A stretch of DNA of 64,000 nt from an uncultured Actinomycetes bacterium (GCA_963758125.1 CAVWUL010000011.1:73347-137346); one strand, 5' to 3'. Shown: positions 31,930 to 63,571, numbered from the stretch's first letter. Notes: generated from the letters alone by a model not told the origin. A program made the numbers and translations.

Positions 31930-31946
31930 TCGCAGGCTACCTGATT
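31930..31946. promoter_or_regulatory. candidate operator, member of the recurrent 17-bp palindrome family (TCGCAGGCTACCTGATT)
   Basis: Sits in the 49-nt divergent spacer between the MetE-like and amidohydrolase genes. Matches the consensus TRTCAGGTAGCCTGATA at 11 of 17 positions, including CCTGAT. Confidence 0.4.
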
Positions 31947-31968
31947 CTCGGGTCGATAGGATCCGCGT

Positions 31969-32838
31969 GTGTCCGGGATCGACCTCGACGGCGTAGTCGC
32001 GATCGACGTGCACACCCACGCGGAGGTCTCGCGCACCGGGCTCGATCCGCTCACGCCCGAGCTGCGCGCCGGCGCCGCGAGGTATTTCTCGAGCGACCGC
32101 CTGCCGACGGCCGAAGACGTCGCCTTGTACTACCGGGAGCGCAACCTCGCCGCGGTGATCTTCGGCGTCGACAGTGAGTCGGTCACGGGCATCCCGCCGA
32201 TCCCCAACGAGGAGATAGCCGAGGTAGCGGCAGCCAACCCGGACGTGCTGATCCCGTTCGCCTCGATCGACCCGGCACGCGGCGCCGACGGCGTCCGGGC
32301 CGCCAGACGGCTGATCGCCGACCACGGAGTCCGCGGCTTCAAGTTCCACCCGAACTCCCAGGGCTTCTTCCCGAACGACCCGGCCGCCTACCCGCTCTAC
32401 GAGGTGATCGAGGCCGCCGGGCTGCCCGCTCTCTTCCATACGGGTCACAGCGGCATCGGCGCCGGGGTCCGCGGGGGCGGAGGCCTGCGGCTCAAGTACT
32501 CGAACCCGATGGTGGTCGACGACGTCGCCGTCGACTTCCCCGACCTGAAGATCGTGCTCGCCCATCCGTCGTTCCCGTGGCAGGACGAGGCGATCTCGGT
32601 CGCGCTCCACAAGCCGAACGTCTACATCGATCTCTCCGGCTGGTCGCCGAAGTACTTCCCGGAGGTCCTCGTGCGCTATGCCAACAGCCTGCTGCGCGAG
32701 AAGGTGCTGTTCGGCTCCGACTTCCCGGTGCTCACCCCCGACCGCTGGCTCGCCGATTTCGCCGAGCTCCCGATCAGGGACGAGGTCAGGCCGCTGATCC
32801 TGAAGGAGAACGCGATCCGGCTGCTCGGGCTGCGGTAG
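31969..32838 (+). CDS. amidohydrolase-2 family metal-dependent hydrolase/decarboxylase
   Basis: 289 aa. AIDVHTH, GFKFHP and HTGHSG metal-ligand pattern of the amidohydrolase_2 (ACMSD-like) family. GTG start. Confidence 0.8.
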   Translation: MSGIDLDGVVAIDVHTHAEVSRTGLDPLTPELRAGAARYFSSDRLPTAEDVALYYRERNLAAVIFGVDSESVTGIPPIPNEEIAEVAAANPDVLIPFASIDPARGADGVRAARRLIADHGVRGFKFHPNSQGFFPNDPAAYPLYEVIEAAGLPALFHTGHSGIGAGVRGGGGLRLKYSNPMVVDDVAVDFPDLKIVLAHPSFPWQDEAISVALHKPNVYIDLSGWSPKYFPEVLVRYANSLLREKVLFGSDFPVLTPDRWLADFAELPIRDEVRPLILKENAIRLLGLR

Positions 32839-32909
32839 ATTCACCGCTCCGCTTCCTGGAGAGGCGGAACCCGGGAAGGCCGCGCGAGCGGTCTTCTTCG
32901 GCTCAGGGG

Positions 32910-33605
32910 CTAGGGAGCGAGCTGGGTGACGAGCTCGTCGCGGAGCCCGGCCTCGGCCGAGGGCTTCTCGAAGATGAGGCTCCCGAGCTTCAGCACCGCC
33001 ACGGTGTCGGCCACCTCGAGGCTCAGATCGAGATTCTGCTCGACCATCAGGATCGTGCAGCCGTGCCGCTCGCGAAGGCTCTTCAGCGCGGAGCCGACCG
33101 TCGAGACGACTGCCGGCCCGAGACCGTCGGAGATCTCGTCGAGCACGAGCAGATCGGGCGAGCCGACGAGCGCCTTCGCGAGGGTCAGCATCTTCTGCTC
33201 GCCGCCGCTCAAGGTCCCGGCCCGCTGCCGCAGGCGCTTGCCGAGCACGGGGAAGTAGGAGAACACCTCCTCGCGAAGCTCGGCGCTGCAGCGCTTGCCC
33301 TTTCCGACGGTGAGGTTCTCCTCGATCGAGAGCTCGCCGAAGAGCGACTTCTCCTGCGCGGCGTAGGCGACCCCCATCCGCGAGATCCGGTAGGTCGGCC
33401 AACCCGTGACGTCGCGCTCCCCCAGCGACACCGTCCCGCGCGACGGCTTCAGGTAGCCCATCACCGCCTTCAGGAGCGTGGACTTGCCCATCCCGTTGCG
33501 GCCGACGATCGCGAGTGCGCTGTGCTCGGGAACGGAGAACCCGATCTCCTCAAGGATCACCGCCGAGCCGTAGCCGGCGCGGAGCCCTGCGACCTCGACC
33601 TTCAC
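32910..33605 (-). CDS. ABC transporter ATP-binding protein (LivF-like)
   Basis: 231 aa. Walker A GRNGMGKST, signature LSGGEQKM, Walker B LLVLDE. Confidence 0.9.
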   Translation of the reverse strand: MKVEVAGLRAGYGSAVILEEIGFSVPEHSALAIVGRNGMGKSTLLKAVMGYLKPSRGTVSLGERDVTGWPTYRISRMGVAYAAQEKSLFGELSIEENLTVGKGKRCSAELREEVFSYFPVLGKRLRQRAGTLSGGEQKMLTLAKALVGSPDLLVLDEISDGLGPAVVSTVGSALKSLRERHGCTILMVEQNLDLSLEVADTVAVLKLGSLIFEKPSAEAGLRDELVTQLAP

Positions 33606-35407
33606 GTAGCCGCCACCGTCCCGACGTAGGCCTCGCGGACGACCGCCGAGGCAGAGACCTCGGCCGGCGTCCCCGACTCGACGACCTTGCCGCCGTGCAG
33701 CACGATCACGCGATCCGCGACCCGGGCGACGAAGTCCAGGTCGTGCTCGATCAGCACGATCGTCATCCCGGCGTCGACGAGCCGGCGGAACACGTTGCCG
33801 ATCACGCCTCGCTCGTTGCTCGTGAGCCCAGCAGTCGGCTCGTCGAGGAGCAGCAGCTCGGGACGGACCGAGGCCGCGGCGGCCAGCTCCAGGCCCTGCT
33901 TGAGCCCGTGCGCGAGCGCGGGAGAGGGCACGTCCTCGCGCCCGTCGAGGCCGGTCGCCCCGACGATATCGAGCACCGACTGCGGCACCGCGACCTGCTT
34001 CGAGCGGCGCCAGAGCGAGGGGATGCGTCCCTTCCGGGACGCAAGGAGCAAGGTCTCGGCGACGGTAAGGCTGTCGAAGAGATGCGGGATCTGGAACTTC
34101 CGCGCGACGCCGGCCCGGGCGATCCGGTGGATCGGCTGCCCCTTCCGCACGAGCTCCCCCGCATGCATGAAGTACGAGATGTCGCCCTGGGCAGAGAGCT
34201 TGCCGTCGGTCAGCACGTTCAGCAGCGTCGACTTGCCCGCACCGTTCGGCCCGACGATGCAGAGGAGCTCGCCGGCCTTGATCTCGAAGTCGACCCCGCG
34301 CAATACCTCGAGCGCGCCGTAGGCGAACTGCACCTCCGAGACAACCGTGATCGGCTCGCCGCGCTCACGCAGCGGCGGCCGCGCCCGCGGCGCCGGAACG
34401 AGCTCCCGCGACGCCTTCGCAGGCCACCGGCGCAGGAGCACGCGCCGGACCTGGCGAACCGCCGGCGGAAGCACGCCGTCCGGTACGAACACGACCACCG
34501 CGACGAAGAGGAGACCGAGGAACAGCGACCACTCGGTCGGGTAGGACGCGCTCAGCTTGTTCGTGACGAAGCTGAGCCCGATCGCACCGATGACCGGCCC
34601 GAGGATCGTGCCTCGCCCGCCGACGGCGACCCAGATCAGGATCTGAGTCGAGAACAGGAACCCGAAGAGCGGCGCGGAGACGAACCCGACGATCGTCGCG
34701 TACACGCCCCCGGCGCCCGCGGCGAGCACGGCACCGAGCACGAACACCGCGATCTTCACGAGCTCGACGTTCGTCCCGAAGAAGCGGACTCGCCGTTCGT
34801 TGTCGCGGATCGACTTCATCACGAGACCGAAGTCGCTACGCACGAGCACGAGCGCCCCCGCAGTCACGACGGCGAGCAGCGCGGCGCAGATGTAGTACCA
34901 GGTCGTCCCCGAGAAGCGGTGCGAGGCGAAACCGAAGAGACCGCTGTCACCGCCGGTGTACGGCGTCTCCTGGCTGTACACCGTCGATGCGATCACCGTG
35001 AGGGCCAGGGTCACGATCGCGATATAGAACGGGTCGGACTCGCCCTGGGAGAACGAGAGCAGCCCGACGACGAGCGCCACCGCCCCGGCGATCGCCATCC
35101 CGATCCCGATCCCCGCCACGTGGCGGCCGAGCCCGCCGTGCGTACCGAGCACGAGCCCGGAGGGATCGACGGTCGTCGTCATCATCCCGACCGCGAGCGC
35201 TCCGAGGCCGAACCACAGTGCGTGCCCGAGGTCGGGCATCCCGGTGTAGCCCCAGACGAGATCGAGGCTGAGCGCCACGATCCCGAACAGCAGGGACTCG
35301 GCGAGCAGGCTCAGGTAGTACGTGTCGAGGAGGTGCGGCATCGCCGCGACGATCACGACGACCCCGACGCTCCCCACCGCCCAGACGGCGGCGCGGCTCC
35401 TGATCAC
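33602..35407 (-). CDS. fused branched-chain-type ABC permease (LivM-like) and ATP-binding (LivG-like) protein
   Basis: GTG at 35407 in a GTGA overlap with the LivH-like stop. N-terminal multi-TM permease, then GPNGAGKSTLLN and LLLLDEPTAG. Confidence 0.85.
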   Translation of the reverse strand: MIRSRAAVWAVGSVGVVVIVAAMPHLLDTYYLSLLAESLLFGIVALSLDLVWGYTGMPDLGHALWFGLGALAVGMMTTTVDPSGLVLGTHGGLGRHVAGIGIGMAIAGAVALVVGLLSFSQGESDPFYIAIVTLALTVIASTVYSQETPYTGGDSGLFGFASHRFSGTTWYYICAALLAVVTAGALVLVRSDFGLVMKSIRDNERRVRFFGTNVELVKIAVFVLGAVLAAGAGGVYATIVGFVSAPLFGFLFSTQILIWVAVGGRGTILGPVIGAIGLSFVTNKLSASYPTEWSLFLGLLFVAVVVFVPDGVLPPAVRQVRRVLLRRWPAKASRELVPAPRARPPLRERGEPITVVSEVQFAYGALEVLRGVDFEIKAGELLCIVGPNGAGKSTLLNVLTDGKLSAQGDISYFMHAGELVRKGQPIHRIARAGVARKFQIPHLFDSLTVAETLLLASRKGRIPSLWRRSKQVAVPQSVLDIVGATGLDGREDVPSPALAHGLKQGLELAAAASVRPELLLLDEPTAGLTSNERGVIGNVFRRLVDAGMTIVLIEHDLDFVARVADRVIVLHGGKVVESGTPAEVSASAVVREAYVGTVAAT

Positions 35408-36243
35408 GATCGCCGCAGCGCGAGCCCTTGTGGGCGGAAGCGCAGGACGACGACGGCGACCCCGATCACGACCACGTTCGACCAGATTGCGTTCTCGTAC
35501 CGGGAGAAGAGCGTCATCGTTCCTGCGAGCAGGACGCATGACAGGACGAGGCCGACGAGCGTTCGGCCCGAGAGCAGGACGGCGAGGAAGCCCGTGGCGA
35601 TCAGCGTCTGGCCGAAGTTCGGGTCGACGCCCTCGATCGGGCCGAGGACGGCGCCCGCGAGGCCGGCGAGTGCCGCGCCGGTGATGAACGTCAGCTGCCG
35701 GACGCGTACGGTGTTGATCCCGTCCGCGCGCGCGAGCGCCTCGTTGGCCATCACGGCGCGGATCGTGAGACCGAGGCTCGTGAAGCGGACGATCACCGCG
35801 AGCGCTGCGATCAGCCCGGCCCCGAAGGCGATCAGGATCAGGCGGTAGTTGGAATACGGCGTCCCGAACACGTCGGTGGCATTGATCGTCGGCAGGTTGA
35901 GGAAGCGCTGGCCCGGCCCGTAGATCTCCGTGATCCCCTGCACGAGCACGAGCGAGACGCCCCAGGTGGCGAGGATCGTGTCGAGCGGCCGGGCGTAGAG
36001 CCGCCGGATCACGATCAGCTCGATCACCGCCCCGACGACGCCGGTGACGAGTGCGGCGAGAACGAGGCTCGGCCAGAAGCCGACCCCGTGCCCACGGAAG
36101 CTGACCTCCGCGTAGACGCCCACCGCCATCAGGCCGGCGTTCGCCAGGTTGACGACGTTCAGCAGCCCGAAGATCAGGAAGAGGCCCGTGACGACGAGTA
36201 CCAGCGTCGAGATCGCGACGAGAAGGTCCAGCGTCAGACTCAC
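35404..36243 (-). CDS. branched-chain-type ABC transporter permease (LivH-like)
   Basis: 279 aa multi-TM protein. LLNVVNLANAGLMAVGVY is typical of the BPD_transp_2 family. Confidence 0.9.
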   Translation of the reverse strand: MSLTLDLLVAISTLVLVVTGLFLIFGLLNVVNLANAGLMAVGVYAEVSFRGHGVGFWPSLVLAALVTGVVGAVIELIVIRRLYARPLDTILATWGVSLVLVQGITEIYGPGQRFLNLPTINATDVFGTPYSNYRLILIAFGAGLIAALAVIVRFTSLGLTIRAVMANEALARADGINTVRVRQLTFITGAALAGLAGAVLGPIEGVDPNFGQTLIATGFLAVLLSGRTLVGLVLSCVLLAGTMTLFSRYENAIWSNVVVIGVAVVVLRFRPQGLALRRS

Positions 36244-36285
36244 GGGCCTCTACCTTATGTCTCTTCTAGGTGGCTCGAATCAGCG

Positions 36286-37488
36286 TCAGCAGGTTGGGTT
36301 GGCAGGGACCGGGGTGATCCGCTGGGACTTCCCGACCAGCTTCGCGGTACCGTCCTTCTGCTCGTTGACGAGGTACGTCGTCATGCTCACGTAGTGGCGG
36401 TTCTTGAACGCCAGGTCACCGCGAGGCCCTGACGTCTTCGCCGTCATCAGCGCCGTGATCACGTCCGGCCCGCTCGTCGACTTCGCGGTCTTCAGGGCGT
36501 GGGCGAGGATGAAGACCCCGTCCCAGGCAGCAGCGGCGGCACCCGAGACCTCGGCCTTGTCGCCGTACTTCTTGTTCATCGCTGCGAGGAACTGCTGATT
36601 GCCCTTGCCCGTGTTGTCCTTGAAGTACCCCGTCGAGACGATCGTGCCGTTCAGGAGCGAGCCGCCGATCGACGCCGCGATCCCGTCGTCCATCAGGAAG
36701 CTTGCGGTCTGGATCCCCTTCGAGCGCGGGTCGGTCTTGAACTGCTTGTAGAACGCCGTCTCGTCGCTGCCGACGAGGATGTCGATCACGGTGTCCGGCT
36801 GCGCCGAGGCGATCTTCGAGATGTCGCTCGAGAAGTCGGTCGTCCCGAGCGGCTCGTACGACGTTCCGACGACCGTGGCCCCGTCGGCCGCCGCCTGCTG
36901 GGTGACCTCGGCCGCGCCGACATGCCCCGAAGAGAAGTCGCTGGCGACGATGTAGATCTTCTTCGTCCCGGCGTGCTTCGTCAGGTAGGTCATGAGCGGG
37001 TTCACCTGCTGGTTGCCGACGTTCGCGAGCGAGAAGTAGTTCGACAGGCACAGCGACCCGGAGGTCGAGGTCTGCGCGAGGATGTACGGCAGGTTGTTGT
37101 TCGTCAGATACGTGTTGCAGGCCGCCGTCGAGGGTGTTGACTCGAAGCCGATGATCGCGCTCACATGGTTCGAGTTGACGAGCCGGTTGCAGACGTTGCC
37201 GGCCGTGACCGGATCCGCTGCGTCATCTGCGTAGTAGACCTTGATCGTCCGGCCCGCCACGTTGTTCTTGTTGACGTAGGCGAGCGCGGCCTGGAGGCCC
37301 TGCGTCGCCGAAGCGGCATTCGTTGCCTGGCTGCCCGTGAAACCGGTGACCCAACCGATCACGTACGGAGCAGGTGTGGCCTTGCGGGCCGACACTGCCG
37401 TTGCCGCAATAACGCCGGCCAGGACCGCAATGCCCAGAACCGCCGTCAGCGTCCGGCGGCCCCGGAGTGAAACCTTGAGAGCCGACAT
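36286..37488 (-). CDS. ABC transporter substrate-binding protein (Peripla_BP_6 / LivJ-like)
   Basis: ATG at 37488 after a GAGGAGG SD. Signal-like RRTLTAVLGIAVLAGVIAATAVSA. 400 aa. Confidence 0.85.
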   Translation of the reverse strand: MSALKVSLRGRRTLTAVLGIAVLAGVIAATAVSARKATPAPYVIGWVTGFTGSQATNAASATQGLQAALAYVNKNNVAGRTIKVYYADDAADPVTAGNVCNRLVNSNHVSAIIGFESTPSTAACNTYLTNNNLPYILAQTSTSGSLCLSNYFSLANVGNQQVNPLMTYLTKHAGTKKIYIVASDFSSGHVGAAEVTQQAAADGATVVGTSYEPLGTTDFSSDISKIASAQPDTVIDILVGSDETAFYKQFKTDPRSKGIQTASFLMDDGIAASIGGSLLNGTIVSTGYFKDNTGKGNQQFLAAMNKKYGDKAEVSGAAAAAWDGVFILAHALKTAKSTSGPDVITALMTAKTSGPRGDLAFKNRHYVSMTTYLVNEQKDGTAKLVGKSQRITPVPANPTC

Positions 37489-37572: not shown

Positions 37573-37589
37573 TGTCAAGTAGCCTGATA
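37573..37589. promoter_or_regulatory. candidate operator (TGTCAAGTAGCCTGATA)
   Basis: Located 85 nt upstream of the substrate-binding-protein start. On the minus strand it overlaps a TTGACA hexamer. Shares the 10-mer CCTGATACTC with sites at 39374 and 63555. Confidence 0.5.
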
Positions 37590-37703: not shown

Positions 37704-38942
37704 TTAGATAGCGCCGGAGGCGCGAAGAGCCGTGACCCGTTCGGCCGTGTAGCCGAGCATTCCCTCGAGCACGAACTCGTTGTGCTGGCCGAGGCGCGGC
37801 GGCGGGCTCTCGTATCCGGCCCGCGTCCCGGAGAATCGAACGGGAAAACCGCTGCCGACGATGTCCTCGACGGGGCCGAGCTCGGGATGCGCGAGCGGGA
37901 TCGTCTCGCCGCGCCGAAGCGCAAGCGGATCGCGCACGGCGGCGGCGGTGCCGCGCACGACGGCGGTCGGCACGCCCTGCGCTTCGAGCGCGGCCGTGGC
38001 CTCGGCGCTCGTGAGCTCGGCCGCCCACGCGGCGATCAGCTCGTGCAGCGCCGCCGAGTTCGCGACGCGGCGATCGCGATTCGCAAACCGCTCGTCCTCG
38101 ATCAGCTCCGACGTCCCGAGCGCGGCGAACACCCCCCGGGCGAAGGCCTCGGTCGGCGCGCAGAGGGCGACGTAGCCGTCGCGCGTCTCGAAGATGCCGA
38201 ACGGGGCGAGCCGCGGCACAACGTTGCCCGTCCGCATCGCAATCCCGGCGCGCTCCATCGTGTCCCACGGCTCGGTCGCGATCAGCGAGGTGAGCGCCCC
38301 GAGCAGCGAGACGTCGACGTGCTGGCCCTGCCCCGTGCGCTCGCGGTGGTAGAGCGCCGTCAGCGTGCCGATCACACCGAAGAGCGGGCCGACGAGATCG
38401 CCGAACGGCACCGCGTTCCTCACGGGGTCGTCGCCGTCGAGGCCCGGCGTCGTCATCAGCCCGCTCAACGCCTGGAAGATGGTGTCCATGCCCTTTCCCG
38501 GCTCACCGGCGCCGAAACCGCTGATCGAGACGTAGACGATCCGCGGGTTGATCTCCGACGCGAAGGCGTAGCCGATGCCGTTTCGGTCGGCCGTTCCAGC
38601 GCTGTAGTTCTCGACCACGACATCGGCATTGCGGACGAGGTCGGCGAAGATTCCCCGGGCCTCGGGATGCTTGAGGTTCAGGGTGGTGCTGAGCTTGTTC
38701 CGTCCGCGCTCGAGCATCGAGACAGACATGTCGCTCTCGTCGGCCCGAGCCATGTGCAGCCCGGTGTCGCCGACGTAGGGCGCGTTGTTTCGGGACGGAT
38801 CACCGCCCGCAGGGTTCTCGACCTTGATCACCGTCGCGCCGAGAGCACCGAGGAGCTGGGTCGCATACGGGCCGGCGAGCGCGATCGTGAGGTCGATCAC
38901 GGTGATGCCTTCGAGCGGGCGAGGCAGCTTCGCGTCGGACAT
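37704..38942 (-). CDS. CaiB/BaiF-family (type III) CoA-transferase
   Basis: ATG at 38942 (MSDAKLPRPLEGITVIDLT). GPYATQLLGALGATVIKVE is typical of the family. 412 aa. Confidence 0.9.
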   Translation of the reverse strand: MSDAKLPRPLEGITVIDLTIALAGPYATQLLGALGATVIKVENPAGGDPSRNNAPYVGDTGLHMARADESDMSVSMLERGRNKLSTTLNLKHPEARGIFADLVRNADVVVENYSAGTADRNGIGYAFASEINPRIVYVSISGFGAGEPGKGMDTIFQALSGLMTTPGLDGDDPVRNAVPFGDLVGPLFGVIGTLTALYHRERTGQGQHVDVSLLGALTSLIATEPWDTMERAGIAMRTGNVVPRLAPFGIFETRDGYVALCAPTEAFARGVFAALGTSELIEDERFANRDRRVANSAALHELIAAWAAELTSAEATAALEAQGVPTAVVRGTAAAVRDPLALRRGETIPLAHPELGPVEDIVGSGFPVRFSGTRAGYESPPPRLGQHNEFVLEGMLGYTAERVTALRASGAI

Positions 38943-39368: not shown

Positions 39369-39373
39369 CCGAG

Positions 39374-39390
39374 TATCAAGTAACCTGATA
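39374..39390. promoter_or_regulatory. candidate operator (TATCAAGTAACCTGATA); arms extend to GAGTATCA/TGATACTC
   Basis: Best palindrome of the family, with 8-bp perfect arms across 39371..39393. Lies 6 nt after the thioesterase stop and 26 nt before the P450 start region. Confidence 0.55.
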
Positions 39391-39415
39391 CTCTCCCGCG
39401 CGAGGGAGGACGGCG

Positions 39416-48632: not shown

Positions 48633-48820
48633 CAGTCCTCCTCCAGCGCGATCGCGAGGTTCGGGCAGGCATCGACCGCGTCGCGGACCGCGGCCTCGTG
48701 CTCGGGCGCCGGGACGACGTCGTAGACGAGCTCGCCGTCCACGATCCGGAACACATCCGGTGCGGCGTAGGTGCACTCGGCGTTCAGCGAGCACACCTCG
48801 GCGTCGACGGCGATCTTCAC
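48632..48820 (-). CDS. small ferredoxin (3Fe-4S/4Fe-4S type, P450 redox partner type)
   Basis: 62 aa, VKIAVDAEVCSLNAECTYAAPDVF...DACPNLAI (CxxxxxC...CP pattern). GTGA overlap with the paralog D stop. Its stop overlaps the paralog C ATG. Confidence 0.8.
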   Translation of the reverse strand: MKIAVDAEVCSLNAECTYAAPDVFRIVDGELVYDVVPAPEHEAAVRDAVDACPNLAIALEED

Positions 48821-53139: not shown

Positions 53140-53176
53140 CTGGCGTCTCCTATCGCAGATTGCGTATCCGGCATTA

Positions 53177-53206
53177 TTGACAGTTCTTTCGACTGCCGTC
53201 TAGTGT
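53177..53206 (+). promoter_or_regulatory. candidate sigma-70-type promoter for the FAH operon (TTGACA-N18-TAGTGT)
   Basis: Perfect -35 hexamer at 53177..53182 and a TAnnnT-type -10 at 53201..53206, in the locally AT-richer divergent spacer 35 nt upstream of ATG 53241. Confidence 0.4.
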
Positions 53207-53240
53207 TCTGTCACATGACGATCCTATCGCCCACCTGCAG

Positions 53241-54738: not shown

Positions 54739-56760
54739 GCACCGGGCTCGGGCGCCTGTTTGCGCCCAAGTCGGTGGCCGTCGTGGGAGCATCCGCGACG
54801 CCCGGCAAGGCCGGCAACGCCCTGATGCACAGCCTCGCGTCGTTTGCCGGGCCGGTGATCGCGGTCAATCCTCGCGGCGAGAGCGTGGCCGGGCGCCCCG
54901 GGGTCGAGCGGCTGTCCGACCTGAGCGATGCCGTCGACCTCGTGCTCGTCGCGGTGCCGGCGGAGGCTGTGCCGGGTGTCCTGCGAGAGGCCGCGGGGAC
55001 CGATGCCGGCGCCGCAATCGTCCATTCGGGCGGCTGGGCCGAGGCCGGCCCGGGCGGTGAGGCGCTCCAGGCCGAGCTCGTGTCGATCGCCGCGGAGACC
55101 GGGCTGAGGGTTCTCGGGCCGAACACGTCCGGGTTCTTCGCGCCGCCCGAGAAGCTGTGCGCGAGCTTCGTCCGGACGGCGGCGGGCCTTCCCGCGGGTG
55201 GCCTCGCGATCGTTGCCCAGAGCGGCGGCGTGAACCACGCGCTCGCGTTCCTCGCGGCCGGGGAGGGGCTCGGGATCCGGCTCGGCGTCGGGCTCGGCAA
55301 CTCGGCCGACGTGGGCTTTGCAGACGTGCTGGATTCGCTCGCCGAAGATGCGTCGGTCGAAGTCGTCGCACTCGCGATCGAGGGCGTGGCCGACGGGCGC
55401 CGCCTCGTGGAGGCGGTCGAGCGCGTCTCCGCCCGCGTGCCGGTCGTCGCGCTCAAGACGGGCCGCACCGACGTGGATGCGTTCTCGCGCTCCCACACCG
55501 GGGCCCTGACCGGAAGCTGGCGCGTCACACGCGCGGCGCTTGCGCAGGCAGGCGCGGTCGTGGTCGACGAGATGACGCAGCTCATCGACGCGGCGCAGGC
55601 GCTTCGACTCGTCCGGCTTCCTGCGCGGGAGGTTGCAGGCGTCGGGGTCGTCACAGGCCAGGCGGGGCCGGGGCTGCTCCTCGCAGACGAGCTCGGAAGC
55701 CTCGGCGTCCCCATGCCCGAACTGACGGGACCTTCACGCGAGCGGCTCGGTGAGCTGTTGCCGCCGATCACCTTCCAGCGGAACCCGGTCGACACCGGCC
55801 GGCCGGGTGAGACGTTTGCCGCGGTGCTCGAGACCGTCGGTGGCGCGCCGGAAATCGATGCGCTCGCGGTGTACCTGCTCGACGAGCCCGACGCCGTCGA
55901 TCCGGTCGCACTCCTCGGAGGCGTCGGCGCGCCCGCCGTGCTCGCGCTCACCGCAACTCCTCCGGCGTTTGCCGCCGCCCGTGACGTGCTCGCGGGCGCA
56001 CGCGTTCCGGTGCTCCCCACTCCCGAACGCTGTGCACGTGCGGTGGCGGCGATTGTGCGGGACGCAGCTCAGAGAGCGCGGCGTCCGGCGGCGCGGCGCG
56101 CCGCGCGACGTGCCGGCCTTCGCGCCCGCGGGAGCCTGGGACGAGGATCTCGCGAAGCGGCTCGTCGCCGAAGCCGGCCTTGCGGTACCTGCCCGGATCG
56201 TCTGCGGCAGCCACGACGAGGCCTTCGCCGCACTCGGGCGGCTTCGACCGCCTCTCGTCGTCAAGATCCTTCACCCGGAGATCGAGCACAAGTCAGACGT
56301 CGGCGGAGTCAGGCTCGGGATCCGCGACGAGTCCGAGCTCGAGGCGGGGCTGGCCGCGATCGATGCGCTCGGGCGCGAGGACCACAGGTATCTGCTCGAG
56401 GAGACGGCGGCACCCGGGCCCGAGCTGATCCTCGGCGCCCGACGCGACCCGGCGTTCGGGCCGCTCGTCGCGCTCGGGGCAGGCGGGACAGCTGCCGAGG
56501 CGCTCGGCGACGCGGTGGTGCGGCTTGCGCCCCTCGAAACGGCGGAAGCGGAGACGATGCTCGGCGAGCTGGCGGCCGCCGCGGCGTTCCGGGGCGCGCG
56601 AGGAGCTCCAGCGGTCGACTTGCCTGAGCTCGCGAAGGCGATCGTGGCGTTCGGCGACCTGATCGCCGGGCGCGACGACATCGCTGAGGTCGAGGTCAAC
56701 CCGCTTCGCGTCACCGACGGCGGGCTCGTCGCGCTCGATGCGCTGGTGGTGGCGCGATGA
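54735..56760 (+). pseudogene. ADP-forming acyl-CoA synthetase (CoA-binding + ligase-CoA + ATP-grasp), one apparent frameshift near 56078-56107
   Basis: TTG at 54735 overlaps the upstream stop. The CoA-binding/succinyl-CoA-ligase-like part (KSVAVVGAS..HTGALTG) is in frame 0. The ATP-grasp part (VVKILHPEIEHKSDVGGV..) is in frame 1 (ORF 55750..56760). Confidence 0.75.
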
Positions 56761-57965
56761 CGGGCCGGACGATCGTCGTGGGTGCCGGGCCGGTCGGCCT
56801 GACGGCCGCGCTTGCGTTGCGCGCCGAAGGGATCCCCGTCACGGTGCTCGAGGCGGGTACCGCCGACCGTGTCCGTCCCGGGAGCCGCGCGATCTTCATC
56901 CACGGCGCCTCGATCCGGCTACTCGACGCGCTCCGCCCTGGGCTCGGCCGGGAGCTCGCGGATCACGGACTGATCTGGCTGACGAAGCGCACGTTCTACC
57001 GCGGCCGCGAGGTGTATTCGAAGACTTATCGGCCGCCGCCCGCCGACGTGCTTCCGGCTGCGACGAGCCTGCCGCAGGTCGTCACCGAGCAGTTGCTCCT
57101 GGCGGCGGCCCACGCCTCGGGCGTGGAGTTCGTGTGGGAGAGCCCGGTCGCCGGGGTCGAGGCTCGCGACGACGGCGTGACGGTCGTCACCGAAAGCGGG
57201 TCGCGATTCGACGCCGACTTCGCGATCGGGGCAGACGGAGCACGTTCGAACGTCCGCTCCTCGCTCGAGATCCCGCTCGAGGGCCCGAGGACGCAGAACG
57301 CGTTCGTGATCGTCGATGCCGCCGAGGATCCCGGCGCGCCCTTGCCGCCCGAGCGGATCTTCCACTACGAGCATCCGGCCGTCGACGGCCGTAACGTGCT
57401 CTTCGTCCCGTTTGCGGGGCACTGGCGGATCGACCTCCAGTGCCGCCCCGATGACGACTCCGATGCGTTCGGCGGGGAGGGCGTCAAGGACTGGCTGCCG
57501 CTCGTGATCGACGCGAAGTACGCCGAGCGCGTCACGTGGGTTTCGACCTACGTGTTCATGCAGGTTCTGGCCCGGGAGTTCGTCGACCCGAGCCGCCGCG
57601 TGCTCCTCGTCGGCGAGGCGGCGCATCTGTTCGCACCGTTCGGCGCGCGTGGGCTGAACTCGGGCATTCCCGATGCGGTCGTCGCGGCAGGCGCGATCCG
57701 AGCCGCTCTCGATGCGCCGACCGCAGGGGAGGCGCACGCTGCGGTCGACCACTTCGCCGAGTCCCGGCGCACCGCTGCCGAACGGAATCGGTCGGCCTCG
57801 AACGAGGCCCTCGCCCATCTCGCCCCGACCGAGGAGGCCGTCCTCGAGAGGCGCAGAACTGCTGCGGCCGCCGCACCGGCAGACGAGGACGCGGGCCGGT
57901 GGCTCGACTCGGCCCCGTATGGCCCGAGGCTCGGCCCGCCGGATTCGGACGGCATGCAGTACTGA
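56757..57965 (+). CDS. FAD-dependent aromatic-ring monooxygenase (PheA/UbiH family)
   Basis: ATGA overlap with the upstream gene. GAGPVGL dinucleotide fold, GADGARSNVR and GEAAHLFAPFGARGLN motifs. 402 aa. Confidence 0.85.
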   Translation: MTGRTIVVGAGPVGLTAALALRAEGIPVTVLEAGTADRVRPGSRAIFIHGASIRLLDALRPGLGRELADHGLIWLTKRTFYRGREVYSKTYRPPPADVLPAATSLPQVVTEQLLLAAAHASGVEFVWESPVAGVEARDDGVTVVTESGSRFDADFAIGADGARSNVRSSLEIPLEGPRTQNAFVIVDAAEDPGAPLPPERIFHYEHPAVDGRNVLFVPFAGHWRIDLQCRPDDDSDAFGGEGVKDWLPLVIDAKYAERVTWVSTYVFMQVLAREFVDPSRRVLLVGEAAHLFAPFGARGLNSGIPDAVVAAGAIRAALDAPTAGEAHAAVDHFAESRRTAAERNRSASNEALAHLAPTEEAVLERRRTAAAAAPADEDAGRWLDSAPYGPRLGPPDSDGMQY

Positions 57966-58204: not shown

Positions 58205-59695
58205 TCAGGTGAGGCTGAGCTCGCGGGCCAGGGCCTCGCGATCGATCTCCCGTTTCAGCACCTTGCCGGTCGGCCCCATGGGAAGTGCATCGACGACGAC
58301 GACGTGCCGCGGGTATTTGTACGCGGCCAGCCGTTCGCGCGCCCATTCGCGAACCGCGTCCGGGTCGCAGCCGGCCCCCGGCCTCGGACGGACGAGCGCG
58401 ACGACTTCCTCGCCGAGCTTCGGATCGGGCACCCCGATCACCGCCGCTTCGTGGACGTCCGGGTGGCCGTAGAGCACCTCCTCGACCTCGCGCGGATAGA
58501 CGTTGTAGCCGTTGCGGATGATCATCTCCTTGAGCCGGTCGACGAGGAACAGGTAGCCGTCACCGTCCACGTAGCCAAGATCCCCGGTCGGAAGCCAGCC
58601 GTCGGCCGACACCGTCGCGGGAGCGTTTCCAGCTCCGCGCCAGTAGCCGGGAATCACGCTCGCGCCCCGAAACTGAACCTCGCCGACCTCGCCCCCGGCG
58701 ACCGGGAGACCCTCCGGCGAGACGATCCGCAACTCGGTGTCCCCGAGCGGCAGGCCCACGGATCCAGGCTTGCGCAGCTGGCCCTCCCGGTAGGTGGTCG
58801 CGATCCCCGAGATCTCGGTCAGGCCGTAGCCCTCGTAGACAGCAGCTCCGAACACCTCCTCGAAGTCCCGCGTCACCTCGATCGGTACCGGAGCCCCGCC
58901 GACGTGCGCGAGGCGCAGCGGCGGCAGCGTCTGACCCCCGCGGGCCGCCTCACAGAGGGCGATACACATCGTCGGCACACCGAGCAGGACGGTCGTGCCG
59001 GTCTCGGCCATCTGCGCGAGCGTCGCAGCGGGCTCGAACCGAGGGACGATCGCGACGGCGCCGCCGGACATCAGCGTCGCGACCAGCCCTGTCGACTGTC
59101 CGAGGACGTGGGAGAACGGCGCCGCACCGAGCACGACGTCGCCCGGACCGAAGCCGAGCGCATCTGCTGCGTTCCGGGCCGCCGCTGCGATGCTGCCGTG
59201 CGTGAGCACAGCGCCCTTGGAGGCTCCGGACGTCCCGGAGGTGAAGAGGATCACGGCTGCATCGCTCCCCGCACGCTGCACCACCGGCACGCCGTCCTCC
59301 ACATTTGCGTCGTCCAGCGAGATGGTGGGTACCCCACGCGCGGCGGCCAGCGGCGCGAGCTCGCCGACTCGCTCGTGATCGAGGACGAGCGCCGAGGCCG
59401 ACACAGCCGCGAGCCGCTCGTCGATCTCGCGCCCGCGCAGCAGTCCGTTGATCGGAACCGCGACCGCCCCGACCCAGAGCGCCCCGAAGTACGCCGCAGC
59501 GAACGAAGGCGCGTTCGGGAGGACGATCGCAACGCGGTCGCCTGGGCGCACGCCTGCCGCTTCGAGCCGTGAAGCAGCCGCGCCTGCCTTCGAGCGCAGC
59601 TCGGCATACGAGCTCGGTGCACCGGCGTGGATCAGCGCCGTTTCGGCCGGATCATGGCTAGGCTCGCTGACGATGCATGCGAGATTCTCATTCAC
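58205..59695 (-). CDS. AMP-dependent acyl-CoA synthetase/ligase (FadD-like)
   Basis: FTSGTSGASKGAV AMP motif and a GWLPTGD region. The track start is TTG at 59749. GTG at 59695 is preferred because it leaves the palindrome at 59710 intergenic. Confidence 0.85.
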   Translation of the reverse strand: MNENLACIVSEPSHDPAETALIHAGAPSSYAELRSKAGAAASRLEAAGVRPGDRVAIVLPNAPSFAAAYFGALWVGAVAVPINGLLRGREIDERLAAVSASALVLDHERVGELAPLAAARGVPTISLDDANVEDGVPVVQRAGSDAAVILFTSGTSGASKGAVLTHGSIAAAARNAADALGFGPGDVVLGAAPFSHVLGQSTGLVATLMSGGAVAIVPRFEPAATLAQMAETGTTVLLGVPTMCIALCEAARGGQTLPPLRLAHVGGAPVPIEVTRDFEEVFGAAVYEGYGLTEISGIATTYREGQLRKPGSVGLPLGDTELRIVSPEGLPVAGGEVGEVQFRGASVIPGYWRGAGNAPATVSADGWLPTGDLGYVDGDGYLFLVDRLKEMIIRNGYNVYPREVEEVLYGHPDVHEAAVIGVPDPKLGEEVVALVRPRPGAGCDPDAVREWARERLAAYKYPRHVVVVDALPMGPTGKVLKREIDREALARELSLT

Positions 59696-59709
59696 GGCCT
59701 TGCGAACAA

Positions 59710-59726
59710 TGTCAGGTTGTCTGACA
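59710..59726. promoter_or_regulatory. candidate operator (TGTCAGGTTGTCTGACA) in the acyl-CoA synthetase / marR divergent region
   Basis: Perfect 6-bp arms TGTCAG/CTGACA. Arms extend imperfectly to about 25 bp. 56 nt upstream of the marR ATG. Confidence 0.55.
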
Positions 59727-59781
59727 CTATGCGGAGATTGCCCGGTCAAGCGATCACTCCACTCCGTCTGAGACGACTCCG

Positions 59782-60249
59782 ATGAGCGAGCCCGTGATCA
59801 TGGACCAGCGCGAGGAAGTCGAGCCGCGGATCAGCTACGTGATCGCCCGGCTGGAGCGCGCCGTTCGGGCCGCGATCAACGAGAGGGTCCGGCCGTATGG
59901 GCTGACGACGCTCCAGTACACGACGCTGAGTGTCCTCGGCCGGCGCGGCGGCCTCTCGAACGCCCAGCTCGCACGCCGCTCATACATGACCCCCCAGTCG
60001 ATGAGCGAGGTGATCGAAGCGCTCGAGGGGAAGGGCCTGATCAAGCGCGACCAGCATCCGAACCACCGCCGCGTCTATCCCGCCCAGCTCACCGCCACCG
60101 GAATCAAGGTGCTCGAGGCCTGCGACGAGGCGGTTGGGAGCATGGAAGAGGACATGCTCCGCGAGTTGGACGCCGGCGAACGCGAGGCGCTCTACGGCGG
60201 CCTCGTCGCAGCCGTGCGGGCGCTTCACGCCGGACTTCCGGAAGGTTGA
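59782..60249 (+). CDS. MarR-family transcriptional regulator
   Basis: 155 aa. Winged-helix region LTTLQYTTLSVLGRRGGLSNAQLARRSYMTPQSMSEVIEALEGKGLIKR. Confidence 0.9.
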   Translation: MSEPVIMDQREEVEPRISYVIARLERAVRAAINERVRPYGLTTLQYTTLSVLGRRGGLSNAQLARRSYMTPQSMSEVIEALEGKGLIKRDQHPNHRRVYPAQLTATGIKVLEACDEAVGSMEEDMLRELDAGEREALYGGLVAAVRALHAGLPEG

Positions 60250-60250
60250 A

Positions 60251-60267
60251 TATCAGGTAGCCTGACG
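60251..60267. promoter_or_regulatory. candidate operator (TATCAGGTAGCCTGACG)
   Basis: Starts 2 nt after the marR stop and lies 49 nt upstream of the SDR ATG. TCAGG-TAG-CCTGA core. Confidence 0.5.
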
Positions 60268-60315
60268 CCCGTTCAGGTACGGCAGGTGTGAGGCAAGCTC
60301 TTCGAGGAGGTTCGC

Positions 60316-61140
60316 ATGGGGGTGCTCGACGGCAAAGTCGCGCTGGTCACCGGCGCAGCGCGCGGGATCGGACGCGCAGCGGCCTCGCTGCTCGTCGAGC
60401 ACGGCGCACACGTGATGATCGCCGATCTCGACGAGGACGTCGCGCGCGCGACAGCCACGGAGCTCGGCGAGACGACCGCGGTCTTCGCCGGCAACCTCAC
60501 CGAGGACGGGGTCTGCGAGTCGCTCGTTGCCGCAACGGTCGAATCGTTCGGACAACTCGACATCGTCGTCAACAACGCCGGGTACAGCTGGGACGGGATC
60601 GCACACAAGATGGGTGACGACCAATTCCGGGCGATGCTCGAGATCCACACGGTGGTGCCCTTTCGCATCCTCAAGGCAGCAGCGCCGCATCTGCGCGAGC
60701 CTGCGAAGCAGGAGGCCGCCGAGGGACGCGAGGTGTTCCGAAAGGTCGTGAACGTGACGTCGATCTCCGGGACGCAGGGGAACGTCGGCCAGGCCAACTA
60801 CTCGGCCGCGAAGGCCGGGCTCGTCGGGTTGACGAAGACCCTGGCCCGTGAATGGGGCCCGTCGAAGATCAACGTGAACGCCGTTGCCTTCGGCTTCGTC
60901 GAGACCCGCCTCACCGGAAGCCCCGGCGAGGAGACGTTCAAGGCAGGTGAGGTCGAGGTGCCGCTCGGCATCCCCGACCGCATGCGCGAGCTCGCGGCCC
61001 AGATCATCCCGCTCGGACGACCCGCGACCGCCGAAGAGGCTGCAGGCCCGATCTTCTTCCTCTGCTCGCCCTGGTCGAACTTCGTGCAGGGCCAGGTGAT
61101 CACCGCCAGCGGCGGGCAGACGACCGGGATGACCTCATGA
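60316..61140 (+). CDS. short-chain dehydrogenase/reductase (3-oxoacyl/3-hydroxyacyl reductase-like)
   Basis: TGAARGIG cofactor motif, NNAG and YSAAK catalytic motif. 274 aa. GAGGAGG SD. Confidence 0.9.
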   Translation: MGVLDGKVALVTGAARGIGRAAASLLVEHGAHVMIADLDEDVARATATELGETTAVFAGNLTEDGVCESLVAATVESFGQLDIVVNNAGYSWDGIAHKMGDDQFRAMLEIHTVVPFRILKAAAPHLREPAKQEAAEGREVFRKVVNVTSISGTQGNVGQANYSAAKAGLVGLTKTLAREWGPSKINVNAVAFGFVETRLTGSPGEETFKAGEVEVPLGIPDRMRELAAQIIPLGRPATAEEAAGPIFFLCSPWSNFVQGQVITASGGQTTGMTS

Positions 61141-61982
61141 GCACCCAGGTCGAGCAGCTGAGCCTCGAGCGCCTCGGCGTCGCGGGGCCCGAGGTTCGCT
61201 ACGTCGTGTCGGCCGAGGCGATCCAGGCCTACGCGGCCGCCACCGGGAACGAATCCGACGGCCGCACCGCGACCCCGGTGTTCGCGATCGTGCCGGTCTG
61301 GGAGGCAATCGCTCCCGCGTCCCGCTCGGTCGCGACGGAGGATGCGCGGAAGCGGGTCGTCCATTTCGGGCAGGACATGGTGCTTCACCGGCCGATCGAA
61401 GCCGGGATGACGCTCGTCTCAACGGCAACCCCCACCGCGCTCCTCCAGCGGGGCAGCGGTACCGCGCTCGTGATCCACACCCAGACGAGCACCGAGGCCG
61501 GCGAGCTCGTGAACGAGCAGTGGGTCACCGAGTTCTTCCGCGGCGTCGACACCCCCGAGAGCCGGGGCGAGCCTGGAGCCGACCACCGGCTCGCCGCCGA
61601 GGTGGCCGAGTCGGAGCCACTCGACGAGATCGTCCAGCCGGTTGCGCCTGATCAGCCGGATCGGTACGCGGAGGCCTCCGGCGACAGGTTCGTGATCCAT
61701 CTGGACGACGAGGCCGCCCGCGCCGTGGGGCTTCCCGGCCGGATCCTGCACGGCTTCTGCACCCTCGCCTTCACGGCCCGCGCTGTGTGCGACGCAGCAG
61801 GCGGGGTCGACGAGTCGCAGCTGGCGAGGCTCGCGGCTCGCTTCTCGGCCCCGGTCTTCCCCGGCGACACCCTGACGACCCGCGTCTGGGAGCTCGGCGG
61901 CGGCCTCTTCGGCTTCGAGGCCTCGTGCGGACCCGATCGGATCGTGATCAAGGACGGGCTCGCGCGTCTCCGCTCCCGCTGA
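61137..61982 (+). CDS. MaoC-family double-hotdog (R)-specific enoyl-CoA hydratase/dehydratase
   Basis: ATGA overlap with the SDR gene. 281 aa. C-terminal half with ILHGFCTLAF is typical of the MaoC dehydratase domain. Confidence 0.85.
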   Translation: MSTQVEQLSLERLGVAGPEVRYVVSAEAIQAYAAATGNESDGRTATPVFAIVPVWEAIAPASRSVATEDARKRVVHFGQDMVLHRPIEAGMTLVSTATPTALLQRGSGTALVIHTQTSTEAGELVNEQWVTEFFRGVDTPESRGEPGADHRLAAEVAESEPLDEIVQPVAPDQPDRYAEASGDRFVIHLDDEAARAVGLPGRILHGFCTLAFTARAVCDAAGGVDESQLARLAARFSAPVFPGDTLTTRVWELGGGLFGFEASCGPDRIVIKDGLARLRSR

Positions 61983-62055
61983 CCGCGGCACGAACACGCC
62001 GACAAGCACAGGCGTCTGGCGCGCAACCCGTCCGATCCAGCCACGCCACACGGCC

Positions 62056-62153
62056 GCGCCCCCACCCAGGGTGGGGAGCCATCCCCGCCACCCTCGAGAT
62101 CAAATTCTACGAGCTCGAATACCCTGTGTCTGTACCAGCTTCGTAACGGTTTC
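62056..62153. repeat. ~95-nt repeat element, copy R (inverted relative to copy L)
   Basis: Contains CCCCCACCCAGGGTGGGG, CCACCCTCGAGATCAAATTCTAC and GTGTCTGTACC. Overlaps the PrpD-like stop codon. Confidence 0.8.
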
Positions 62154-63543
62154 AGCCGTCCTGGAGCCTCTCGGCCAGAGGAGCGAGAACGGAGGCGACG
62201 TCGGATTCAGCGTCGAGGGAGAGGATCCGAACGGCGAGCTCGCGGCGGGCCGCACCGTCGAGGGGCAACGCAGCGTGTCCCATGCAGTCGAGGTGCTTGG
62301 CGAGAAGTTGCCTGTCCGAAATCGGGTTGCCGGGAGCTCCGAGTGCTACCGGAACCTCGCAGACGAGCACGCGTCCGTCGGTGGTCGTGACCTCGACGCT
62401 GCCGCCGGCGACCCCGAGTGCGAGATCGACCTGGAAGCGAATCCGCTCTGCGAGCCGGTGTACTCCGTCGGCCCCGAGCCGCTCCGGCACGAACGAGCCG
62501 AGGTTGAGCTCGCCGGCTTCGATCGCGAGCGCCACCGTGACGTACACGCTGAACTTCGCCTCGACCACCGTGCCCGGCCGGAGCTTGAGCTCGCGCGGCT
62601 CGGCGACGAGAGCGCGCGCCTGCGGTGACCCGATTAGCAGCACCCCCGCGATCTGATCCGGCCGGAAGCCGTGCTCGGCCCTGAGCGCCAGGGCGCCCTC
62701 GACGAACGGATGCGTCGCGCGGCAACTCGGCCACGGCTTGAAGCCGACCCGCTCGCCGGCATATGCAGACCCGAGATCGTCCAGCGCTCCCACGAGGTCG
62801 GCGTCGCCGCCCGCATACGCGTGGAGCAGCCCGCCGGCTCCCTCGAACGGCGCGTCGTATCCGCGGAGGCCGTCCCGTGCGAGGAGCGCCGAGACGAGGG
62901 CCGCGTGGGCGGGAAACGCGTCGCGAACGCCGCGCATCGGCGTGCCGCTGCTGCCGAAGATCGGCCCGTGGCTGCCGAGCTGCCCGAGCACGAGCGAGAA
63001 CGCATCGAGCGTCCGCCGCTCGTCGAGACGAAGCAGGTTCGCCGCCGCCGCAGTCGCACCGAACCCGGCAACGAGCGACGGGGGATACCACCCACGTTCG
63101 ACGAGTGCAGGCCCGAGCGCTCGCGAGAGCCGGCAGGTGAGATCGCAGCCCACCGCCATCGCAGCGAGAAAGTCTCGGCCGCTCACCCCGCCCTCCGACT
63201 CGGCGAGCGCGACCAGCACCGGAACGATCTGCGCGTTCGGATGGCAGAGCGAGTCGTCGTCTGCGTCTTCGAAGTCGAGCGCGTGGGCAAGAGCGCCGTT
63301 CACGAACGCAGCCCAGGCCGGCGACGTTCGCTCCCCGAACCCGAAAATGGTGGAGACCGGCGCCGACCCCTCGCTTCGCGCGAGCGACGCGAACGAGCGG
63401 CACTCGGGAGCGAGACCGCTCGCCGCCACCGACACGCCGATCGCATCGAGGAGCGACCGCCCGGCGGCGGCGAGGGCGGCTGCGGGGATCGCGTCAGCCC
63501 GAGTCTCCGCGACGTGGCGCGCGATCCGGGCCGAGACTTCCAC
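62152..63543 (-). CDS. MmgE/PrpD-family protein (2-methylcitrate dehydratase-like)
   Basis: 463 aa. GTG start. N-terminal ARHVAETRADAIPAAALAAAGRSLLDAIGV and overall length are typical of the MmgE/PrpD family. Confidence 0.85.
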   Translation of the reverse strand: MEVSARIARHVAETRADAIPAAALAAAGRSLLDAIGVSVAASGLAPECRSFASLARSEGSAPVSTIFGFGERTSPAWAAFVNGALAHALDFEDADDDSLCHPNAQIVPVLVALAESEGGVSGRDFLAAMAVGCDLTCRLSRALGPALVERGWYPPSLVAGFGATAAAANLLRLDERRTLDAFSLVLGQLGSHGPIFGSSGTPMRGVRDAFPAHAALVSALLARDGLRGYDAPFEGAGGLLHAYAGGDADLVGALDDLGSAYAGERVGFKPWPSCRATHPFVEGALALRAEHGFRPDQIAGVLLIGSPQARALVAEPRELKLRPGTVVEAKFSVYVTVALAIEAGELNLGSFVPERLGADGVHRLAERIRFQVDLALGVAGGSVEVTTTDGRVLVCEVPVALGAPGNPISDRQLLAKHLDCMGHAALPLDGAARRELAVRILSLDAESDVASVLAPLAERLQDG

Positions 63544-63554
63544 CGGCCGGCGAT

Positions 63555-63571
63555 TATAAGCTCACCTGATA
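63555..63571. promoter_or_regulatory. candidate operator (TATAAGCTCACCTGATA) in the PrpD-like / CapA-like divergent spacer
   Basis: The whole spacer is 31 nt. The right half site CCTGATACTC is identical to sites at 37573 and 39374. On the minus strand TATAAT lies 9 nt before the PrpD-like GTG. Confidence 0.45.

Follow-up and report, generated by a model that had tools for sequence, protein, structure and literature searches.

The phd cluster of Corynebacterium glutamicum is an actinobacterial, coenzyme A (CoA)-dependent, beta-oxidative phenylpropanoid cluster under the control of a MarR-family protein, PhdR, and its CoA ligase gene adjoins the regulator gene. HcaR of Acinetobacter ADP1 and the HcaR-type repressors of Pseudomonas, Ralstonia and Agrobacterium (Atu1422), which belong to hca or ech-vdh-fcs clusters, are also MarR-family dimers encoded beside a hydroxycinnamate-CoA ligase gene. 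The characterised HcaR, CouR and PhdR-type proteins are repressors, and either hydroxycinnamoyl-CoA thioesters or the free acids are reported to release them (PMC4737184, PMC5487221 and PMC12862763, the last two covering the HcaR type). The cou pathway of Rhodococcus jostii RHA1 consists of a CoA ligase and beta-oxidative steps, with the amidohydrolase-superfamily protein CouO acting last, and its effector is p-hydroxycinnamoyl-CoA (PMC4737184). Here we analysed a 64,000-nucleotide stretch of DNA from an uncultured Actinomycetes bacterium (GCA_963758125.1, CAVWUL010000011.1:73347-137346; hereafter the window), in which a 17-bp palindrome recurs at six places and flanks the only MarR-family gene, marR (59782-60249). 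We think it very likely that the six palindromes are operators for a dimer of the HcaR-subfamily protein encoded by marR, and that they join about six aromatic-acid operons as one regulon.

Six palindromic sites in the window

An initial annotation of the window placed six 17-mers at 31930, 37573, 39374, 59710, 60251 and 63555, and we found them there exactly as described. When the consensus TATCAGGTNNCCTGATA was searched with up to three mismatches, it matched these six positions and nothing else in the 64 kb. The shuffle expectation was 0.15, and none of 100 dinucleotide shuffles of the window equalled the observed six matches. Forty scrambled palindromes of identical composition gave a mean of 0.23 matches in the window and a maximum of three. 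One scrambled palindrome, ATTCGAG..CTCGAAT, had three window matches and was non-significant on testing. The 10-mer CCTGATACTC, which the annotation reported as common to three sites, occurs at exactly three places (37583, 39384 and 63565).

We then ran a weight matrix over the window that had been derived solely from sites in other genomes. The six sites scored 23.9–35.5 bits and the seventh-best window position scored 5.8 bits, so that 18 bits separate the six sites from every other position. Because of this gap, the six sites are a discrete class and the complete set for the window. The matrix also holds information outside the search pattern, namely A/T at positions -1 and +19 and W at the centre, and information content is at background beyond approximately 21 bp. 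The consensus is A-n-TATCAGGT-W-ACCTGATA-n-T, with the general form TATCAG-N5-CTGATA.

Our gene map of the window, built from codon-usage scoring and Pfam, is 88% coding, and the window has a G+C content of 69.6%. The gene content named in the annotation agrees with this map. All six sites lie outside gene calls, as had been claimed, at 1–84 nt from a gene end or start. When 7-mers were tested for enrichment in the intergenic set, TACCTGA came out high but not first; this test is noisy, since the set is contaminated by coding gaps that carry no annotation, and our reading does not depend on it. The first 31.9 kb of the window is without sites and carries unrelated genes, among them a sulfatase, a sulfate permease, a cyclase and a glutaminase.

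Two of the sites flank marR. Site 4 (59710-59726, TGTCAGGTTGTCTGACA, 27.2 bits) lies in the divergent gap between an acyl-CoA ligase gene on the minus strand and marR on the plus strand, 14 nt from the ligase GTG at 59695 and 55 nt from the marR ATG at 59782. Site 5 (60251-60267, TATCAGGTAGCCTGACG, 25.6 bits) begins 1 nt past the marR stop codon and ends 48 nt before the ATG (60316) of a short-chain dehydrogenase/reductase (SDR) gene. Site 3 (39374-39390, TATCAAGTAACCTGATA) is the window's best at 35.5 bits and extends to a longer palindrome, GAGTATCA..TGATACTC; it is 5 nt past a thioesterase stop codon and just upstream of a cytochrome P450 (P450) gene that opens a plus-strand P450/hydrolase/HGD-D/CapA-like operon. 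Site 2 (37573-37589, TGTCAAGTAGCCTGATA, 29.9 bits) lies 84 nt upstream of the ATG (37488, minus strand) of the binding-protein gene of a Liv-type ATP-binding cassette (ABC) transporter. The remaining two are in divergent gaps. Site 1 (31930-31946, TCGCAGGCTACCTGATT, reading AATCAGGTAGCCTGCGA on the minus strand, 23.9 bits) is 10 nt from the GTG (31919) of a minus-strand MetE-like gene and 22 nt from the GTG (31969) of a plus-strand Amidohydro_2 gene. Site 6 (63555-63571, TATAAGCTCACCTGATA, 25.5 bits) is 11 nt from the GTG (63543) of a minus-strand PrpD-like gene and 3 nt from the ATG (63575) of a plus-strand CapA-like gene.

Linkage between the palindrome and marR in other genomes

Close homologues of the MarR protein occur in metagenome-assembled genomes of Gaiellaceae and other Thermoleophilia. 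We scanned a MarR alignment against one genome per species and obtained 79 loci with marR central and up to 10 kb on each side (1.45 Mb), selected by MarR homology only. The orthologues have 61–97% identity. There were 177 motif positions in this DNA, and 76 of the 79 loci had at least one. Scaling the window shuffle rate of 0.15 per 64 kb gives an expectation of approximately 3, and scrambled palindromes averaged 7.7. By rough gene calls, 157 of the 177 sites are intergenic versus 17% non-coding DNA; the other 20 overlap the last codons or doubtful starts of called genes. Most sites (142 of 177) are within 200 nt upstream of a called start.

A site is found within 200 nt after the marR stop codon in 56 of the 79 loci, often centred exactly at +10, and within 200 nt upstream of marR in 43; both sides are occupied in 40. 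We aligned the gap between marR and the SDR gene from 26 genomes whose MarR proteins are 62–89% identical to the window's. From the stop codon to the ribosome-binding site, no block other than the palindrome was conserved, and the palindrome was intact where insertions on its 5' side push it away from the marR stop. The window also has an extra half-site-like repeat, GTTCAGGTACGGCAGGT, just 3' of site 5 (60268-60290), and this repeat was not conserved in the relatives' alignment. For every one of the six window sites, a counterpart exists in some other genome. The statistical excess, the intergenic placement and this conservation support the annotation's proposal that the palindrome is an operator linking at least six transcription units.

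An inverted repeat could also work at the level of RNA, where it would be a terminator, an attenuator or a processing hairpin, and one copy does begin 1 nt past the marR stop. The sites at 39374 and 59710 fold at -8 to -9 kcal/mol, whereas those at 63555, 37573 and 31930 barely fold (0 to -4 kcal/mol). No U tract follows any site, and terminator prediction at the sites scanned (37573, 39374, 59710 and 60251) returned none. The occupation of divergent promoter gaps would make no sense for a terminator. The 104 distinct variants contain 117 one-sided changes, which disrupt pairing, and only 11 two-sided changes that preserve it, under a selection rule that disfavours double changes; this is a pattern of sequence conservation, not covariation. 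A role in RNA instead of as a DNA operator is, on these grounds, extremely improbable.

The linkage between palindrome and regulator was also approached from the opposite direction. A metagenome search across many environments, using WATCAGGTARCCTGATW alone, returned at least 120 stretches. In 30 of the 120 matches listed, a MarR homologue (32–73% identity) lies within 400 nt of the motif. All 30 of these stretches have a G+C content of at least 0.55, and none of the A+T-richer matches listed has a homologue; the A+T-richer matches are presumably chance. Three of the MarR-linked metagenome loci have an enoyl-CoA hydratase gene beside the motif, and one of them continues with an aldehyde dehydrogenase and a ligase, which is the ech-vdh-fcs order. 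In many distant MarR loci (L096, L102, L119, L122, L147, L175, L181 and L185), the palindrome is present as two or three close copies directly upstream of the regulator gene, as in L147, where the closely spaced copies read TATCAGGTTACCTGATAtggTATCAAGATACCTGATA.

Cultured bacteria have related sites. On the megaplasmid of Ralstonia solanacearum OE1-1, a MarR gene (41% identical) is divergent from genes for p-hydroxycinnamoyl-CoA hydratase/lyase, aldehyde dehydrogenase and feruloyl-CoA synthase, and the gap between them holds a perfect TATCAGGTAACCTGATA and a second site, TATCAGGCCCGCTGATA. Rhodococcus opacus PD630 has TATCAGTGACTCTGATA in the equivalent MarR-flanking gap. In Acinetobacter indicus, whose HcaR is 75% identical to that of ADP1, the promoter region contains TATCAGTTAAGCTTACA, which is related but degenerate. 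From these loci, the general box is TATCAG-N5-CTGATA, of which Gaiellaceae and Ralstonia use a tighter version, TATCAGG-N3-CCTGATA. In open-access full text, none of the four 15-mers ATCAGGT[AT][AG]CCTGAT is printed, and a full-text search for TATCAGG/CCTGATA with MarR gave irrelevant papers only. The annotation had named the MarR protein as the candidate binder, and the linkage from MarR to motif and from motif to MarR, across phyla, supports that choice.

The marR gene (59782-60249, plus strand) encodes a 155-residue HcaR-like MarR-family regulator (Pfam MarR, 5.4e-14; MarR_2, 6.7e-13). Of the solved proteins, HcaR of Acinetobacter ADP1 is its nearest relative (E = 1.5e-21, 35% identity). 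The PDB search gave 80.5 bits for HcaR, 53.8 for Rv2887 (the next hit), 37.7 for R. palustris CouR and 23.5 for RHA1 CouR. By PDB-search score, characterised HcaR appears to be a nearer relative of the protein than any other characterised MarR protein. The helix-turn-helix (HTH) and wing hardly vary across the 79 orthologues, and the TCAGG core of the palindrome hardly varies either. One MarR clade (L065, L066, L067, L072, L074 and L079) has the wing HGRLL in place of HRRVY, and its outer half-sites read TGACAGG in place of TATCAGG. Because the wing variant goes with the half-site variant, the pattern is consistent with the wing reading the outer operator bases; shared ancestry could also account for it. 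In this clade marR is near position 10001 and the sites are near 8400–8600, approximately 1.4 kb off marR and not adjoining it.

Co-localisation alone cannot identify a binder. The SDR-MaoC pair travels with marR in most loci, so the motif could belong to that operon, with MarR a regulated passenger and the operator recognised by another regulator. One such regulator would be PaaX (51078-51968), which is encoded in the same island as the operators; another would be a factor encoded elsewhere. A PaaX homologue is present in only approximately 11 of the 79 site-carrying loci, however. In motif-selected DNA of unrelated bacteria, among the matches listed, the one neighbour that recurs is a MarR homologue, and it stands beside the motif even where the targets differ (ech-vdh-fcs instead of SDR-MaoC). 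The parallel between the invariant HTH and wing and the invariant operator core, and the tracking of the half-site variant by the wing variant, also point to MarR. A dyad of 17 bp whose 7-nt arms enclose a 3-nt centre fits a winged-helix dimer, as known for the family (PMC4737184). We therefore give a different regulator very little chance and retain the MarR protein as the predicted binder.

Probable promoter overlap and a proposed mechanism

The usual actinobacterial -10 element is TANNNT. The operator centre is asymmetric: it reads TANNNT toward the downstream gene in 48 of 59 SDR sites versus 1 of 59 on the other strand. At the sites upstream of marR, TANNNT is found in 0 of 36 on the marR strand and in 17 of 36 on the other strand, which in most loci carries the ligase. 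In the window, site 1 has TAGCCT on the MetE-like strand and site 3 has TAACCT on the operon strand. The Liv binding-protein (LivK) sites differ in that a TTGAYA is present on the gene strand in all four; the window's site and its counterparts in L010, L043 and L056 all read CTTGACA there, embedding a TTGACA -35-like hexamer. At site 6, the degenerate left arm, read on the PrpD strand, is TATAAT and precedes the GTG by 9 nt. In L004, L008 and L011, the SDR start codon comes 8 nt after the hexamer with no ribosome-binding site, which suggests that these SDR transcripts are leaderless. The operators thus appear to overlap core promoter elements, and because of this overlap the arrangement looks like repressor geometry. 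Repression by promoter occlusion is likely.

The orientation of the centre hexamer toward the downstream gene, like a -10 box, and the short, dispersed nature of the copies raise another reading, in which the element is a promoter signature itself (for example, of an alternative sigma factor) or a small dispersed repeat and has no dedicated repressor. Both arms are symmetrically conserved, far more than a -10 element requires. Conservation ends at approximately 21 bp; hence this is no mobile repeat of the REP (repetitive extragenic palindromic) or MITE (miniature inverted-repeat transposable element) kind, and copies of a dispersed repeat would be unrelated to gene starts, whereas most of the locus sites (142 of 177) lie within 200 nt upstream of a called start. 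In the proteobacterial matches, where promoter rules differ, the dyad always stands beside a MarR homologue. We find this reading scarcely credible.

A MarR protein could instead bind these sites as an activator or a dual regulator. Some MarR proteins activate, and FerR of Pseudomonas fluorescens is described as acting in both ways, by activation and by repression (PMC10458429). The distance of site 2 from the Liv start (84 nt) is compatible with an upstream activator position. Against this, the relatives of the HcaR, CouR and PhdR types that have been characterised are repressors, and most sites are 10–50 nt from start codons and overlap -10/-35-like hexamers, the classic geometry of repression. 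Activation or dual control is unlikely in our view, although less so than the other alternatives considered above, and simple repression by MarR is the reading that we carry forward.

Several points weigh against this reading. The site set behind the matrix and the counts was gathered with the window-derived consensus, so that matrix positions 1-8 and 11-17 are partly circular. The 79 loci are phylogenetically related, and their counts are not independent events. The promoter-overlap argument leans on the actinobacterial TANNNT rule, which is general knowledge; site 2 has TAGCCT on the strand opposite its target, and an E. coli-type promoter scan at sites 37573, 39374, 59710 and 60251 (three regions) detected none. 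As to the substrate, the Liv binding protein is equally close to urea-binding proteins and to aromatic-acid binders, and the substrate is therefore uncertain. NCBIfam gave the window enzymes no specific names, and no equivalog passed its cutoff.

From sequence we infer that MarR binds the sites, in which direction it regulates, that the sites overlap promoters, and which effector and substrate are involved; the following scheme is offered on that footing. Without inducer, a MarR dimer would occupy each operator. Since each operator would overlap a core promoter element, the bound dimer would block RNA polymerase. In the SDR-MaoC, ligase, P450 and MetE-like units the blocked element would be the -10-like TANNNT in the middle of the operator; in the Liv operon it would be the TTGACA -35 element, and at the PrpD-like gene TATAAT. 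The ligase encoded beside marR would act on an aromatic acid brought into the cell, probably a hydroxycinnamate or phenylpropanoid, and form its CoA thioester; either the thioester or the free acid would release the repressor. Release would turn on uptake (the Liv-type ABC transporter), activation (the ligase) and side-chain beta-oxidation (SDR, MaoC hydratase and amidohydrolase). It would also turn on accessory enzymes, namely the P450/hydrolase/HGD-D/CapA-like, PrpD-like and MetE-like units. Because two operators bracket marR, the gene is likely autoregulated.

Content of the proposed regulon and comparison with known systems

When the window proteins were mapped onto the 79 loci, the conserved core was an acyl-CoA ligase on one strand and, divergent from it, MarR, SDR, MaoC hydratase and Amidohydro_2. 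By analogy, this core resembles a cou/phd-type beta-oxidative hydroxycinnamate layout. The commonest site target is SDR (59), followed by MarR (36), ligase (29), CoA-transferase (6) and the Liv binding protein (4); P450s and PrpD/CapA-like genes are targets as well. No site falls inside any homologue of a window gene in these loci. Counterparts of site 3, at the CoA-transferase/P450/hydrolase junction, are at L008:897, L010:2820, L030:3110 and L043:4050, and the site 3 operon is syntenic, with sites, in L008, L010, L030, L043 and L056. In the PrpD/CapA-like gap, L001 and L005 have the same site and L070 has a related one. The identical 17-mer of site 1 is present in the orthologous Amidohydro_2/MetE-like gap of L203, where the flanks have diverged. 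The MetE-like gene recurs as a regulon member (L203, 3001-4119; L205, 2973-4573), and in L205 two sites bracket this gene together with a MarR gene, and genes for an enoyl-CoA hydratase and a ligase come next. In most relatives, Amidohydro_2 follows within the SDR-MaoC operon; the window's amidohydrolase gene appears to have moved out of that operon and retained its own operator.

In the window, the core consists of the acyl-CoA ligase gene (58205-59695, minus strand, Pfam AMP-binding), marR, and the SDR dehydrogenase and MaoC-type hydratase operon (60316-61982, plus strand, by Pfam). The ligase has feruloyl-CoA synthetase 8wev as its best solved relative (E = 2e-89) and probably makes a CoA thioester. 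The divergent pair around site 1 (30801-32838) comprises the MetE-like gene (30801-31919, minus strand) and Amidohydro_2 (31969-32838, plus strand), called by Pfam and NCBIfam. The MetE-like protein is a stand-alone MetE-like catalytic domain and matches NCBIfam PRK06520 above cutoff. The Liv-type operon (32910-37488, minus strand, by Pfam) encodes a binding protein, a separate ATPase and two permeases, one of which carries a fused ATPase. Among the solved relatives of its binding protein are 4ey3, 4evs and 4f06 from Rhodopseudomonas and also urea-binding proteins. The PrpD/MmgE-like gene (62152-63543, minus strand) and the CapA-like gene, which starts at 63575 on the plus strand and runs off the window, form the last divergent pair (62152-64000, by Pfam).

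The operon downstream of site 3 (39417-44875, plus strand, by Pfam) encodes a P450, an alpha/beta hydrolase, two HGD-D-family proteins and a CapA-like protein. The start of the P450 gene is uncertain: there is no ATG, GTG or TTG before 39554, yet a P450-type N-terminus (..TGDWDPN..) can be read from approximately 39417. Both the window (39389-39560) and L008 (914-1000; protein 77% identical) have an ACG codon that follows a GGAGGA ribosome-binding site at 4-5 nt, and this conserved codon may be a non-canonical start codon. A family-III CoA-transferase gene (37704-38942) and the two HGD-D genes (41400-43765) belong to units that both adjoin operators. We take this set to resemble the phenyllactate dehydratase set FldABC. 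The annotated genes of the window include no activator ATPase of the BcrAD_BadFG type.

Between the two groups of operators lies a block (45079-57965) of four P450 genes and genes for a ferredoxin, a bicupin, PaaX-thiolase, a fumarylacetoacetate-hydrolase-family protein, a flavin reductase and a flavin adenine dinucleotide (FAD) monooxygenase. By weight matrix, no site in this block exceeds 6 bits. In L008-L010, P450 genes orthologous to those of the block abut marR and share its upstream operator. Some genes of the window look split or truncated (within 15552-16852, 46263-46940 and 53961-56760). An AI-2E transporter is in two overlapping open reading frames, one P450 is a C-terminal half only, and the ATP-grasp domain of an ADP-forming acyl-CoA synthetase is out of frame with its CoA-binding/ligase domains. 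Frameshifts or errors of assembly could account for such genes.

Soils hold Gaiellaceae and other Thermoleophilia in abundance, yet these bacteria are almost uncultured, and their regulation is known from sequence alone. A predicted operator/repressor pair is a direct means to delimit a catabolic regulon in these genomes. It also gives the poorly annotated MetE-like, HGD-D, CapA-like, PrpD-like and P450 genes a shared context, plant-derived aromatic acids. Beyond regulon prediction, the box might be used for hydroxycinnamate biosensors; the view of how MarR repressors act is unchanged.

A further and decidedly tentative suggestion, which we think is probably wrong but not far-fetched, is that the Gaiellaceae HcaR-type regulon recruited enzymes outside the known hydroxycinnamate pathways, so that the operator marks an undescribed aerobic route for further plant aromatics. 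The recruited set may comprise the CoA-transferase and two HGD-D proteins, the CapA-like and PrpD-like proteins, the stand-alone MetE-like methyltransferase domain and P450s. If this were true, the route would feed aryl-lactates and methoxylated or reduced phenylpropanoids into hydroxycinnamoyl-CoA beta-oxidation, and the operator would be a probe with which to define it.

Among described systems, RHA1 CouR is also an actinobacterial MarR repressor with several operators over promoter elements, at four cou promoters (PMC4737184), and the window's SDR/MaoC/amidohydrolase set parallels the beta-oxidative cou pathway of that strain (PMC4737184). The RHA1 CouR operator, cATTGA-N5-TCAATg over the -35 element, is nevertheless unrelated (PMC4737184; the site is also printed in the supplement of PMC9594313), and the RHA1 protein is only a distant relative of the window's MarR (5cyv/3fm5, E of approximately 5e-4). 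CouR of Rhodopseudomonas palustris, a MarR repressor of p-coumarate catabolism that is released by p-coumaroyl-CoA, is moderately related (6c28, E = 2.4e-8). Its site, TTGTTATACTCTATAACTATTCTGCACAG (PMC9594313, supplement), has no likeness to the TATCAGG dyad. We considered both CouR operators as known matches to the window motif and rejected them, since the sequences are unrelated.

The HcaR-type loci of cultured bacteria do share the box type, with a perfect match in Ralstonia OE1-1 and a degenerate one in A. indicus. Identity between HcaR-type proteins and the window's MarR is only approximately 35–42%. HcaR-type clusters use a hydratase/lyase and aldehyde dehydrogenase route, whereas the window has beta-oxidative SDR, MaoC and amidohydrolase genes; one box is thus conserved across phyla while the pathway varies between a lyase route and a beta-oxidative route. 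The predicted regulon of the window is also much larger than those of the HcaR type, with six operators over 32 kb and P450, HGD-D, CapA-like, PrpD-like and MetE-like genes among its members. We place the window system among the HcaR-type MarR regulons, a kind of switch that is already known; its novelty lies in the host lineage and in how large the regulon is and which genes it contains.

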